From the NCBI RefSeq assembly GCF_030013205.1, contig NZ_CP122648.1: a stretch of 64,000 nt of DNA; one strand, given 5' to 3'. The DNA comes from Escherichia coli (lineage in GTDB: Bacteria > Pseudomonadota > Gammaproteobacteria > Enterobacterales > Enterobacteriaceae). A model generated the notes under the pieces. It made no database searches and had not been told where the DNA came from. It saw only the letters and a list, made by a program, of their open reading frames with translations. Made by a program: the position numbers and the translations under genes. Shown here piece by piece: positions 3 to 4,497 of the stretch (within the stretch, counting starts at the first letter, position 1; every line of letters starts with the position of its first letter).

Positions 3-92
3 AGCTTCAGGTAATGAGGAATATCTCAATTTTTAAACATAAAATGCGAATTGTTTAGTACAAAAAAGCAGCGTTACGTGATCTTTCCCTGG
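3..92 (-). mobile_element. Terminal 90 bp of a second H-repeat (ISAs1-family) copy; body of the element lies outside the window
   Basis: Near-identical direct repeat of 4408..4497 (left end of the complete H-rpt at 3205..4497), about 2 mismatches; ends in the same ...tttccctgg terminus. Confidence 0.5.
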
Positions 93-545
93 TGACAGTC
101 ACGGCAGCGGAATCGATCATGTCCTTTTGGGTTCTTCCCGTGACGGTAAACCTGAACGGACTGGCAACGGGGGCAATGAAGGTTAACAGTGACCATGAAG
201 GAACCTTAAAAGCGAGTATTATACCACTCATTCAACTAATTGGAGGCATTACCCATCCCTTTTAACACGATCTTTTCCATATAAAACAGGAATAAGTTGC
301 TCCATGTTGTAATTTTTATATTTTTCATGCAAAAACAACTCCCTGCTTTCTTTTCGTCTTTTATTCACATCAATAATTTTCATATCAACTATCTCATTTT
401 CTTTGCTATCTTATCTTTTGAATGGCGTGAATGCTTGCCCCCCATGCTTTCATTGTGCTTTTTGCCTCTAACGGTGAATATTTACCTTGTGAAATTAATT
501 CCTCAAGCATCTCACATCTGCTCTAGTAAAGAAATAGTTCATATT

Positions 546-995
546 CTATAGTTTAATGACCTCGCCAAGCTTACCCCCCTCATCGGCATAAAAAGCACTC
601 AAATACAGATCACCCTTATTTTCTTTTGTAAACTCAAATTCCTCTATTAGAGAGTAATGTTCATATGTAGAGCGATAGGTTAAAACCACAACATTATGAT
701 TAATTACATTACTCGCCAATAAGTTTATTTTATTTAATCTTCCAAACACCTGTTTTTTTTCTTTCATTATCGTTATAAAAACATCTTCCGATGTTGCTTT
801 TTTAAATTCACTGCTTGTGTCAGAGTAGATTTTGTCCACTTCATTCTGATTGTATAGTTTTTGAATGATAACAACTTTATCCTGCGCAATTTTTCTAATA
901 TCAGCATCATTCTTTATTACATTATGACTAATGTCTTTCCCCAAAAACATAAAAACCACTACTGCTACAATAACAATACTCACTTTTATTTTCAT
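546..995 (-). CDS. Putative immunity protein for orphan Rhs toxin cassette 2 (149 aa, N-terminal hydrophobic anchor or signal)
   Basis: Track ORF 546..995; starts 4 bp downstream of the orphan rhs-CT ORF; AT-rich; N-terminus MKIKVSIVIVAVVVFMFLG is hydrophobic; position typical of rhsI genes. No family recognised. Confidence 0.5.
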   Translation of the reverse strand: MKIKVSIVIVAVVVFMFLGKDISHNVIKNDADIRKIAQDKVVIIQKLYNQNEVDKIYSDTSSEFKKATSEDVFITIMKEKKQVFGRLNKINLLASNVINHNVVVLTYRSTYEHYSLIEEFEFTKENKGDLYLSAFYADEGGKLGEVIKL

Positions 996-998
996 AAA

Positions 999-1793
999 TT
1001 AATATCCTGCCAATTGTGATAAACACCATAAACTTTGCGAACAGGTAAGTTCGCCAACAAAACCACCAAATCCGGGACCAATACTCACTGTGCCTGAATT
1101 TTTTCCGTCTGCATCCCTAACCCCTGCAATGGAATATTTTTTCAAATAACCACCTGTAGATATATAACCTTTAGTAAGATACTCCCCCGGAGAGATTTTT
1201 GCTTGCGATGCTGTACCTGACAAAGAAATACCGATTGCAGAACCAACACCATTATGTTCACACAAAGTATAATACATACAAACATCCAGATTAGCTGGAG
1301 CTCTGTCATTCCCCCCAACTGTTGCTCCCACAGCAAAACTAGCCCCTGTAAATTCGTCACCATTAAAACTTATATCAATAGATCCTGAACCAGGGAAAGG
1401 AGTAGTATAAATTTTAGAAGTCACATCCGAAGGAGCGTTATTATTATACATAGAGTTATTCATAAATTCGCCCCAATTGCTATATAATCCCAAAGCATCT
1501 GTGTATGCAACAGGATTCAACGGATACTGATAAAAATTCCATCCCCACTTCAGCCCAATCGGATCATGAGTGATATACCGCCCCTGCAGCGGGTCATAAT
1601 AGCGGTGGCGGTTGTAATACAGGCCGGACTCCTCATCATACTGCTGCCCCGGCAGGCGGACAAGCTGCTGCAGCTGATGCGGGTTCTCTTCATTCAGCAG
1701 GTTGCCCCACTCATCGTATTCTGCGCACCATTCTGTTGCCCCTTCCGTGCTGATAAGCGCCAGCGGCAGGTTATTCGGTTTGCGTCGTTGAGT
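999..1793 (-). CDS. Orphan rhs C-terminal cassette 2: Rhs core-end fragment plus glycine-rich C-terminal toxin domain, no ATG start
   Basis: Minus-strand frame open from about 1793; by hand translation encodes ...[92 protein letters not shown] (homologous to the core end of the main Rhs) followed by a Gly-rich divergent domain (track ORF 999..1520 from a TTG). Nucleotide homology to 5760..5990 and 2880..3120. Confidence 0.6.
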
Positions 1794-1893
1794 TCACTAC
1801 ACTAAAACTCCGTGCCCATATAACCCAAGTCGGAGGCATGCCTTCCTCTGGTTCGTTCCATCTAAAATGTCTATACATAACATGGTTATTCAA

Positions 1894-2286
1894 TTATTTT
1901 TCTTTGAATTTATTCTCAATCCAGCTGTCTTTATACCTGATGAAAATTTGACACTCACCAATATTATCAATGCCTCCAGAATTTGTATTTGGAATTTGTC
2001 CAACTGCAACTATAGTTGATTCAAAATATTCAACATTGACATTATCTGTAATTATTGAAATTATATAATCATCTGGAATAGAGCCATTAGGAGTTATATT
2101 GAAGAAACTAACACCTGAAAATACCAAATAACCATCTTCTAAGTCTTCATTATCATAAAAATTCCATTCTGTTGTACCATAGGCTATCCTTGAGATTAAA
2201 TTAACCTGAATTCTAATTTGTTTACTCCATAAATCAAATTCAATTTTTTTTATTGCTCGATCACCAAGATATATTCTATCAAACAT
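1894..2286 (-). CDS. Putative immunity protein for orphan Rhs toxin cassette 1 (130 aa, no signal peptide)
   Basis: Track ORF 1894..2286 begins 15 bp downstream of orphan rhs-CT 1; AT-rich; acidic, no hydrophobic N-terminus, suggesting cytoplasmic location. Confidence 0.5.
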   Translation of the reverse strand: MFDRIYLGDRAIKKIEFDLWSKQIRIQVNLISRIAYGTTEWNFYDNEDLEDGYLVFSGVSFFNITPNGSIPDDYIISIITDNVNVEYFESTIVAVGQIPNTNSGGIDNIGECQIFIRYKDSWIENKFKEK

Positions 2287-2300
2287 ATTATCCCCCTATT

Positions 2301-3203
2301 CTAAAAATACTCAGGCATTCCGCACATTATATCAGCCTCATCTTGATTGCTTCCCGTTGACATTTCAACATACATAGCATAATAACATTGTCCAAACGTT
2401 CCCTCTCTACATGATCTAAGTGTAAACATATGTAAAACAGAACTAAAAAAGCTTAGTGTACCGAGTGATCTAATACCGATATGTGCGGCACTACTATTCC
2501 ATGGTACAACGCGACCATTAACATCAAGGGATGGACCTTGGCCTTTCATACCGCTACCTGTTCCTGGTAAATGTGCATGTGCATGTGGTGTTGAATTGTT
2601 TGCATGCCCTATTGGATTAAGCCTATAAGCATTTGAATTATTCTGATAAAGAGTGTGAGTATCTGCACTTCCTGGATTACTGGGGGGATACGGGATTGTT
2701 CTGCCACCTACCGGTTCAACCATAATATTGCCTTTAGAATCACCTATAAACCTACCAACAGGTTGTTGAGTTATAGGATCAATAGTACAGGATTGACTTA
2801 CAGGTTTTTGTCTGGGAGAAGGTAATGATAATAGATCTAATCCCAAAGGGTCTATATACTGAACCGGATTCAACGGATACTGATAAAAATTCCATCCCCC
2901 CTTCAGTCCAATCGGATCCTGAGTGATATACCGCCCCTGCAGCGGGTCATAATAGCGGTGGCGGTTGTAATAGAGGCCGGACTCCTCATCATACTGCTGA
3001 CCCGGCAGGCGGATGAGCTGCTGCAGTTGATGCGGGTTCTCTTCATTCAGCAGGTTGCCCCACTCATCGTATTCTGCGCACCATTCTGTTGCCCCTTCCG
3101 TGCTGATAAGCGCCAGCGGCAGGCCGCGATGGTCGCAGTGGTACAGGTGGATTTTTCGCGCCGGCGTGTACACCGGGTCCATCTGGTTTTGCATCTGCGT
3201 CAC
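2301..3203 (-). CDS. Orphan rhs C-terminal cassette 1: Rhs core-end fragment (ends DPLGL) plus His-rich C-terminal toxin domain
   Basis: Track ORF 300 aa; N-terminal ~120 aa nearly identical to the end of the main Rhs core ([49 protein letters not shown]...[39 protein letters not shown]); downstream domain unique (contains [23 protein letters not shown]...N...H). Nucleotide homology to the main gene stops at about 3197, next to the H-rpt end. Confidence 0.7.
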
Positions 3204-3204
3204 C

Positions 3205-4497
3205 GCAGGGAAAGATTACGAAAGCCCGCTCCCAGCAAGGACTGACGCCAGATAGTTTCTGTCCATGGCTGCTTTTCGCATCTTACGTCTTAACCCTGCC
3301 TTGAATACCTTATCATTCGTCAAAATATTAATAGCAATGTGCCGTATCCCTGAAAATAATTCTGCTGCATTTCCTCTTCTTATTTTGCAGTCGTCTTCAT
3401 TCATTACCACGTCCAGACGCCAGTGCAGCTTATTCTCCACGTGCCAGTGGTTTCGGATTGCTGTGGCGAACTTTTCTGCGGTTAAATCAGCAGAACTGAT
3501 ATAATATCTGACCGTCATTTCTGGCTCTTTCTTTTGTTCTGCTATTATTGACCGAAAGGAGACTGCCACGCATAATTTCTTCATTCCTTTCCATTCAAAC
3601 GTGAAATCAATAAGTTCATCAGGGACATCGCAAACAATGTGAAGACGGATTTCTTCTTTGCCGTGACTCTTTTCACTTATTTCGTAACTGTCATGCTTTG
3701 GATTATTTAATTCTTTCAGCGGAAATTTTCCCTCAAAGGCTTTATTTAGTCGTCCCTGATTTCCTTTTACAGCGAATACATAATCACCGCCCTGTTTTTG
3801 TATCTTCTCTGCAATATCTTTCTGGCAACCCATCGCATCAGTTGTGATGATTTTTCCTTTAATATCCAACATGTTAAGAAGTTCAGGGATAGCTGTGATT
3901 TCATTGGATTTCTCATCCGTCCTGATCTGTCCGATGACCAGACTGTGCATTGTTGAGAACGCACTAATGACATGAATCGCTCCCCTGCGGCGACTCTTGT
4001 CATAAGAATGCCGGAGCGTTTTTCCATCAATTGCAATAACGTCTTTATCATCTGAAGAATGGCAGTCACGCATCCAGTTAATAAAGCACTCGTGAAATTT
4101 TGCAGGACTGATACAGGATACAACTCTGGCAATGGTATCGTGAACAGGAATACCATTTTCAAAATCACCATATTGCTTCAAAAAATCGAGATGTGTTTCC
4201 CCAAAATCCTCTATATCTTCCCAGCATTCTGCACCAGAAATAACGGCACAAATAGTCAACAGTAGAATATCCGACAATTTATGTTCCACTTTCCAGGCTT
4301 GTCTTTAATCGAGGATAATAGAAATATGTTCCATCAATTTTTTAAGTTCCATTTTGTTCTACTTAATTATGTAAGGAGTATTTGATCATGTATACGCAAT
4401 AAAAAACAGCTTCAGGTAATGAGGAATATCTCAATTTTTAAACATAAAATGCGAATTACTTAGTACAAAAAAGCAGCGTTACGTGATCTTTCCCTGG
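3205..4497 (-). mobile_element. H-repeat element (ISAs1-family IS, about 1.29 kb) inserted in the Rhs locus
   Basis: Imperfect terminal inverted repeats (3205..3220 gcagggaaagattacg versus reverse complement of 4482..4497 ccagggaaagatcacg) flank an ISAs1-type transposase ORF; size matches H-rpt elements known from E. coli Rhs loci. Confidence 0.7.
3216..4289 (-). CDS. ISAs1-family transposase (H-repeat-associated protein, YbfL/YbfD/YhhI-like)
   Basis: Track ORF 357 aa ([56 protein letters not shown]...) recognised as the H-repeat-associated protein family of E. coli. Confidence 0.85.

Follow-up and report, generated by a model that had tools for sequence, protein, structure and literature searches.

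The first positions of a 64,000-nucleotide stretch of Escherichia coli DNA (contig NZ_CP122648.1 of assembly GCF_030013205.1, referred to below as the window) fall in the distal part of the rhsC locus, where it adjoins kdpFABC. This part of the locus holds an array of “orphan” Rhs cassettes, and the array lies between two copies of the H-repeat (H-rpt), an insertion sequence (IS). The explanation that we consider very probable for the structure as a whole is that the two H-rpts are defective, co-oriented elements, that homologous recombination between them deleted the array in a sister strain, and that the arrangement itself would have originated by exchange.

Within the first 12 kb of the window the plus strand carries kdpF, kdpA and kdpB, and the minus strand carries ybfA, an rhs gene of 1,416 codons and shorter rhs-related open reading frames (ORFs); the relative gene order matches that of the rhsC locus of K-12 (kdp-ybfA-rhsC-ybfB-ybfO-ybfC-ybfQ-ybfL-ybfD-ybgA-phr). 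The 1,416-codon gene (5186..9436, minus strand), which RefSeq names “RHS element core protein”, is the main full-length rhs gene at the rhsC position and is flanked by kdpF/kdpA and ybfA. The main Rhs toxin has a Sel1-repeat immunity gene (4694..5173, minus strand), which in the window is out of frame at a run of eight G residues. Orphan cassette 1 (2301..3204, minus strand) consists of 368 bp of rhs core (2837..3204) and a C-terminal toxin tip, its 5' side being cut by an H-rpt. Its ORF matches the RHS_core profile NF041261 at positions 1141-1261 of 1261, as well as TIGR03696, and a boundary of the DPxGL type between core and tip is visible in the translation. The ORF at 1894..2286 (minus strand), with the RefSeq product name DUF6258, is its candidate immunity gene. 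Orphan cassette 2 (999..1769, minus strand), whose core repeat is of family D1, has an rhs core remnant (approximately 1485..1769) and, after it, a C-terminal toxin ORF (999..1463), and the ORF named DUF3887 by RefSeq (546..995, minus strand) is its candidate immunity gene; the RefSeq features for this cassette in the related strain K_EC180 lie at L001 9819..10283 and 10305..10589. The cassettes have the architecture of Rhs orphans, namely a 3' core fragment, a divergent tip and a small downstream gene (DUF6258 or DUF3887), from which the tips are predicted to be toxins and their neighbours to confer immunity.

The sequence of K_EC180 (swine, Korea) is 100% identical to the window at positions 1..12000, and across 24.7 kb the two differ by no mismatches and a single 1-bp gap. 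The 5.2-kb structure of the window is present in 17 complete genomes, whose hosts are pig or wild boar and which are labelled as enterotoxigenic E. coli (ETEC) or O139:H1; the window's strain is a member of this porcine ETEC/O139 clone. The distribution of the structure was determined among 5,426 complete E. coli genomes by searching separately for three junctions: J1, between the core of orphan 1 and the left end of the H-rpt; J2, in which the right end of the full-length H-rpt (copy 2) is joined to an IS630 fragment and the Sel1 gene; and J3, between the right end of the other H-rpt (copy 1, ybfD) and an IS1 fragment. J1 is contiguous in 17 genomes only, and J3 is present in the same 17 genomes and in no others. 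J2 is found in 175 genomes, a count that includes the distal end of the rhsB locus. It occurs at 100% identity without J1 in CFSAN018748, NRZ14408, isolate 362 (OW967178) and LT599825, and at 99.7% in KE55.

The two H-repeat copies

Copy 2 (3205..4497, minus strand) is an ISEc1-like element of the ISAs1 family, which separates the main rhs gene and its Sel1-type immunity gene from both orphan cassettes. It has the features by which this family is recognized, namely a length of approximately 1.2-1.5 kb, one long ORF and short terminal inverted repeats. Its minus-strand ORF matches the NCBIfam profile NF033564 (“ISAs1 family transposase”) over positions 1-314 of 314 with E=4.4e-123 and 410.5 bits against a cut-off of 70, and its inverted repeats are imperfect, with arms at 3203-3230 and 4472-4499 that are 79% complementary. 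A first-pass annotation of the sequence had described copy 2 as a complete H-rpt. The description is correct in that the element is full-length (1,293 bp, with inverted repeats and an ISAs1 ORF), but the element is not intact: the transposase frame, of 378 codons from an ATG at 4352, contains a TAA at codon 16, and RefSeq flags the gene as “internal stop” in clone-mates. The annotation had also placed the insertion point of the element at the end of the core homology of orphan 1, and a multiple alignment of rhs core ends agrees to the base, with homology reaching 3204 and the H-rpt beginning at 3205. Copy 2 has no target-site duplication (left flank GCGTCACC, right flank GGCTTTAA); this is explained by exchange of a flank, as discussed below, and is no argument against membership of the ISAs1 family. 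At its right end it abuts, at J2, the IS630-family transposase fragment (4500..4628, minus strand; RefSeq annotation). The 12-base tip of the right inverted repeat (AGGGAAAGATCA) has an exact match at 4707..4718 (minus strand), 210 bp past copy 2 in the end of the Sel1 gene; since approximately 0.2 chance matches are expected in the window, this match is not significant alone. A scan of 1..5300 for promoters and terminators gave counts at the level of shuffled sequence.

Of copy 1, only the right end lies in the window (3..92, minus strand), comprising the inverted repeat and the region upstream of the transposase gene; the remainder is upstream. As had been claimed, this end is in the same orientation as copy 2, being a direct repeat (repeat family D2) of 4408..4497 with 88 of 90 bases identical. 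It abuts, at J3, an IS1 transposase fragment (89..196, minus strand; annotated by RefSeq in K_EC180 at L001 8909..9016). To the left of window position 1, K_EC180 and four other clone-mates have ybfD, followed by ybgA and phrB, and RefSeq annotates ybfD in these strains as an ISAs1 transposase, “internal stop; incomplete”. The upstream part of copy 1 was read from K_EC180 (L001 7932..8912), where the element is 981 bp long and has an internal deletion of 313 bp, equivalent to window 3273..3585. Its left 68 bp correspond to the H-rpt left end at 3205..3272, and its right-hand 912 bp to window 3586..4497 at approximately 95.7% identity, with about 40 differing sites. The earlier reading had envisaged either a second complete element upstream or an isolated fragment. 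Extension through the clone-mates supports neither, since both ends of the element are kept over 981 bp and its interior carries the 313-bp deletion and an internal stop; the shared 912 bp are nevertheless ample for recombination. The identically deleted ybfD is found in the same place in AST215, NRZ14408, isolate 362, ATCC 8739 and K-12; the element is an old resident of the rhsC locus. Its two flanks also differ from each other, so that it too has no target duplication.

The two copies are separated by 4,405 bp and have the same orientation, and the bracketing of the orphan array by co-oriented H-rpts, proposed from the window, is seen directly in the clone-mates. The presence of the same IS twice in direct orientation, flanking cargo genes, is the form of a composite transposon, in which the two H-rpts and the DNA that they enclose would move the orphan cassettes by transposition. 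The H-rpt is moreover a genuine IS that has produced 8-bp target duplications elsewhere, and the intact ISEc1 transposases of other E. coli strains could in principle act in trans. The transposase genes of both resident copies are broken, however; the outer flanks differ from each other (copy 1 has CCTGTTGT on its left, copy 2 has GGCTTTAA on its right); J1 and J3, the inner junctions, are found at one locus only, in 17 genomes of one clone; and the sole change that has been observed is a precise homologous deletion with no relocation. Transposition of the array as a unit is extremely improbable on this evidence, and we reject it on the grounds of the broken transposases, the unmatched outer flanks and the single site. 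Since both copies are pseudogenes, the process to be considered is host homologous recombination rather than transposition: the copies act as a direct-repeat homology of 912 bp at approximately 95.7% identity, and not as a transposon. The pairable length is limited to 912 bp because of the internal deletion in copy 1.

Probable loss of the orphan array in CFSAN018748

Loci with a single H-rpt and no orphan cassettes were read in three strains, CFSAN018748, NRZ14408 and isolate 362, in all of which the order is main rhs, Sel1, IS630 fragment, ybfD and ybgA. CFSAN018748 (swine, Denmark) belongs to the clone of the window, with 3 mismatches against K_EC180 in the 6.1-kb flank on the ybgA side. 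The two strains align on both sides of a clean gap of 4,405 bp, which is the segment between the copies. The ybfD element that remains in CFSAN018748 is a hybrid. Its left end and the internal-deletion junction are those of copy 1, while from 3639 to the right end it agrees with copy 2 at every site that distinguishes the copies except 4312. The alleles of copy 2 at 3639, 3658, 3682, 3730, 3750 and 3779 are present in none of the 8 other H-rpt sequences compared. To judge by these private alleles, the hybrid ybfD is a recombinant of window-type copies 1 and 2. A table of informative sites places the crossover in the interval 3586..3638 of copy 2 and the corresponding part of copy 1; this interval is a perfectly identical block of 53 bp, the third longest between the copies. 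Replacement of the segment by DNA like that of NRZ14408 was also considered and is ruled out, because such DNA has the common alleles at 3639-3779.

The mechanism proposed is that host homologous recombination between the 912-bp direct repeats would have removed the whole orphan array in this sister strain in one event. The deletion emerges directly from the comparison of the strains; the exchange would have been RecA-dependent and may have released a 4.4-kb circle. The first-pass annotation had suggested that repeats of this kind could delete or amplify the orphan modules, and had proposed a comparison of strains for deletion or inversion between the copies. Deletion was found in that comparison, in CFSAN018748; amplification was not observed, a tandem duplication of the unit being absent from all five two-copy loci that were read completely; and inversion is not expected for direct repeats.

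A hybrid element with one switch point would likewise be produced if the two H-rpt copies had been collapsed during assembly of the CFSAN018748 genome, in which case no DNA would have been lost. This is most unlikely, since the record is a finished circular chromosome, and the approximately 40 differences in 912 bp are easily resolved by long reads. In addition, the orphan-free architecture occurs independently in NRZ14408 and isolate 362, and there are four matches to J2 at 100% identity outside the 17 genomes.

The direction of the change can be read from a second insertion. In CFSAN018748 and EC556 a 703-bp IS200C element separates the main rhs gene from ybfA, at the same site and with the same flanks, and the two strains also share two single-nucleotide polymorphisms (SNPs); EC556 has the two-copy structure of the window. 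The site is empty in K_EC180, W13-16, ETEC4067 and ETEC1701. With the IS200C insertion taken as a derived character, the two-copy structure is present on both sides of the split and is therefore ancestral, and on the simplest reading, which is probably correct, the line of CFSAN018748 underwent a single deletion. The reverse direction would require that the orphan-free state is ancestral and that a 4.4-kb circle, consisting of one H-rpt and the orphan array, was integrated into ybfD by homologous recombination. The pattern of the hybrid H-rpt is symmetrical and suits integration as well as excision, orphan-free structures are also present in the unrelated lineages NRZ14408 and isolate 362, and circular intermediates have been proposed for the movement of Rhs tips by Jackson et al. 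(PMC2935791). Integration is nevertheless improbable, because the grouping of CFSAN018748 with the two-copy strain EC556 by the IS200C insertion and the two SNPs would require it to have happened twice at the same crossover, and because a donor with the required H-rpt is found in none of the 5,426 genomes.

Origin of the arrangement and association with rhs cores

In AST215 the tip of orphan 1 and the DUF6258 gene are attached to the full-length rhsC, and the rest of the array follows without an internal H-rpt; the same tip and DUF6258 gene are attached to rhsB in TB06051, as its main tip. Simple insertions of the H-rpt with 8-bp target duplications are present in LD91-1 (CAGGTGGA), 2014C-3075 (TACACCGG) and ATCC 8739 (TACAAAAA), at L017 4828..6120, L016 4828..6120 and L005 8001..9292. 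In LD91-1 an intact H-rpt splits rhsA, in 2014C-3075 an H-rpt splits an orphan core, and in ATCC 8739 a full copy sits inside the right end of ybfD. The two insertion sites in cores (LD91-1 and 2014C-3075) are 36 and approximately 60 bp from the J1 site of the window. Since simple H-rpt insertions have 8-bp duplications and copy 2 has none, its right flank must have been exchanged by recombination. Apart from this, the tandem H-rpts of ATCC 8739, and apparently also those of K-12, came from the insertion of one copy into the right end of ybfD.

The left junction of copy 2, J1, is confined to 17 genomes, whereas its right junction, J2, is widespread (175 genomes) and is present at the distal end of the rhsB locus as well, adjoining yhhJ; the Sel1 protein at that locus has the same accession as the Sel1 protein at rhsC in isolate 362. 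Since the Sel1 cassette occurs at both rhsB and rhsC, it has moved between Rhs loci.

The likeliest history has two steps, an H-rpt insertion followed by a homologous exchange. The ancestor would have been similar to AST215, with the tip of orphan 1 on the full-length rhsC, and an H-rpt would have been inserted into the 3' part of the core of that gene. An exchange within the H-rpt and on the core/kdp side would then have brought in a segment consisting of rhs core, new tip, Sel1 immunity gene, IS630 fragment and the right part of an H-rpt. This would have installed the new main toxin and turned the old tip into an orphan, with the end of the H-rpt as its 5' edge. Copy 2 is a mosaic, with private alleles in its left part and common ybfD-type alleles in its right part, which agrees with such a history. 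Campbell-type integration through the 362-bp core repeat was also considered, and no clear reciprocal allele pattern was seen between the main core and that of orphan 1, in a comparison that offers few informative sites.

Several points weigh against the explanation as given here. The direction of the change is read from one shared IS200C insertion and two SNPs, and not from a whole-genome tree. Of the 912 bp of homology, the crossover used the first 53 bp rather than the longest identical block (163 bp), which is a possible place for it, though not the likeliest. The body of the window's own copy 1, which lies upstream of the window, is taken from its clone-mates. An unrecombined parental H-rpt, sought with a query joining the left part of copy 2 to the right part of copy 1, was not found, the best match being the window's copy 2 itself at 98.1%; and a simple H-rpt insertion at the exact J1 position, sought as the right end joined to core from 6063, gave no contiguous match. 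The near misses of this last search led to the real insertions with 8-bp duplications 36 and approximately 60 bp away. Because the intermediates are absent from the genome collection, the two-step origin is a history that we infer.

In 130 of the 5,426 genomes, a query consisting of the last 150 bp of the core joined to the H-rpt left end places that left end upstream of an rhs core/tip boundary, at a distance of no more than approximately 650 bp; the version of the query with the H-rpt inverted finds none. The spacing between core and H-rpt falls into at least five classes, at rhsA, rhsC and rhsF, and the H-rpt is always co-oriented with rhs (L009, L016, L017, L019 and window 3204/3205). Three of the junction sites lie within approximately 62 bp of each other, and two of these are simple insertions with 8-bp duplications. 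These occurrences are counts of genomes and not rigorously counted events, and no null model was applied to them; they suggest an orientation-specific link of the H-rpt to the 3' part of the rhs core. A stronger proposal, which we put forward tentatively and regard as rather doubtful, is that the H-rpt/ISEc1 is no chance passenger of Rhs elements: it would favour the last ~600 bp of rhs cores for insertion, always in the same orientation, and its copies would serve as the downstream homology arm by which toxin-tip/immunity cassettes are excised, demoted and swapped among rhsA, rhsB, rhsC and rhsF. The occurrence of one cassette of tip, Sel1, IS630 fragment and H-rpt at both rhsB and rhsC also speaks for this proposal. 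If true, it would explain the decades-old association of the H-rpt with Rhs elements, and it would suggest where the circular or linear intermediates of the C-terminal displacement model come from, which that model does not explain. A separate structure is seen at the rhsF locus of XH990, between rpmE and yiiX, where an H-rpt (L009 9340..10632) replaces most of an rhs gene, of which an N-terminal remnant of 393 bp is left on one side and a C-terminal part of 1,035 bp on the other; approximately 27 genomes share this structure.

Some further variation was observed in the genes of the locus. The G run in the Sel1 gene (5094..5101 on the plus strand) has 8 bases in K_EC180, W13-16 and ETEC1701 as it does in the window, and 9 bases in EC556 and isolate 362, where an intact, lipoprotein-like ORF of 159 codons results; the gene is annotated as intact in EC556, CFSAN018748 and isolate 362. 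The frameshift is either real, and possibly phase-variable, or a sequencing error in a homopolymer. In many genomes the last rhsB orphan next to yhhJ has the order toxin tip, Sel1, IS630 fragment and H-rpt right end, and the rhsB locus of strain 746 (L018 6577..8775) has 92% DNA identity to window 4378..5700 across the junction. Other IS elements are breaking up the array in members of the clone, as the clone-mate loci L010, L012, L013 and L015 show: IS1 lies in the DUF3887 gene of W13-16 and ETEC1701, ISCro1 (IS66 family) lies inside ybfD of EC556, and the IS200C of EC556 and CFSAN018748 belongs to the same process. K_EC180 and CFSAN018748 differ at 39 sites in a 6-kb alignment that starts within the H-rpt and extends through the main rhs gene (core at window 5700..9436), of which 3 fall in the first 1,012 bp, while the neighbouring 6.1-kb flank has only 3 differences. 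The alleles of the main rhs gene alternate in blocks, a pattern that suggests gene conversion among rhs paralogues.

Comparison with known systems

H-rpts were described in the early 1990s as components of the RhsB, RhsC and RhsE elements of K-12, and have since been classified as ISEc1 within the ISAs1 family. The genes ybfQ, ybfL and ybfD of the K-12 RhsC element are H-rpts that the group of C. W. Hill reportedly named H-rptC1 to H-rptC3, in the early 1990s. The locus of the window (kdp-ybfA-rhsC ... ybgA-phr) and the IS are the same as in K-12, and copy 1 and K-12 ybfD are orthologues that share the internal deletion and the position next to ybgA. In K-12 and ATCC 8739, however, all H-rpts lie together beyond the last orphan, the full copy having been inserted, with an 8-bp duplication, into the right end of ybfD. 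In the window, a full-length copy instead separates the main rhs/immunity pair from the orphans, so that the orphans are bracketed, an arrangement found in 17 of the 5,426 genomes. With ISEc1 and the ISAs1 family in general, the window copies share an ISAs1-type transposase, a unit length of approximately 1.3 kb, one ORF and short imperfect inverted repeats; they differ in being non-autonomous pseudogenes without target duplications of their own.

Homologous deletion between directly repeated IS copies is textbook knowledge for IS1, IS26 and others. The deletion described here resembles it in that the copies are co-oriented, the intervening DNA is lost together with the equivalent of one copy, and a hybrid IS remains. 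There is no difference in principle. The repeats in this case are old, approximately 4% diverged and reduced by the internal deletion in one copy to 912 bp that can pair.

In the displacement model of Jackson et al. 2009 (PMC2935791), orphan arrays are formed through C-terminal displacement, with circular intermediates formed on core repeats. The arrays of that model resemble the present one in having a main rhs gene followed by cassettes of core fragment, tip and immunity gene, and the tip of orphan 1 is attached to full-length genes in other strains, a pattern for which the displacement model accounts. The model differs in drawing its homology from rhs core repeats only, whereas here the end of an IS forms the 5' edge of an orphan, and the IS pair supplies the homology for loss of the whole array. 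A search of that paper for IS-related terms returned one passing mention of “IS elements” (PMC2935791), and in the literature searched the H-rpt appears together with Rhs only in passing mentions in genome papers, the classical H-rpt papers being outside that search.

A strain's orphan Rhs cassettes are a store of toxins and, above all, of immunity genes; keeping or losing them alters the range of neighbours that it can kill or survive. The locus described here is a clean natural example in which a whole orphan array was lost in one step, by recombination between two dead IS copies. It has long been known both that H-rpts occur in Rhs elements and that DNA between direct IS copies can be deleted; this clone-specific case adds to that a natural deletion that is documented, and the end of an IS as the marker of an orphan's 5' edge. 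These observations refine, without changing, the picture of how Rhs loci are remodelled.

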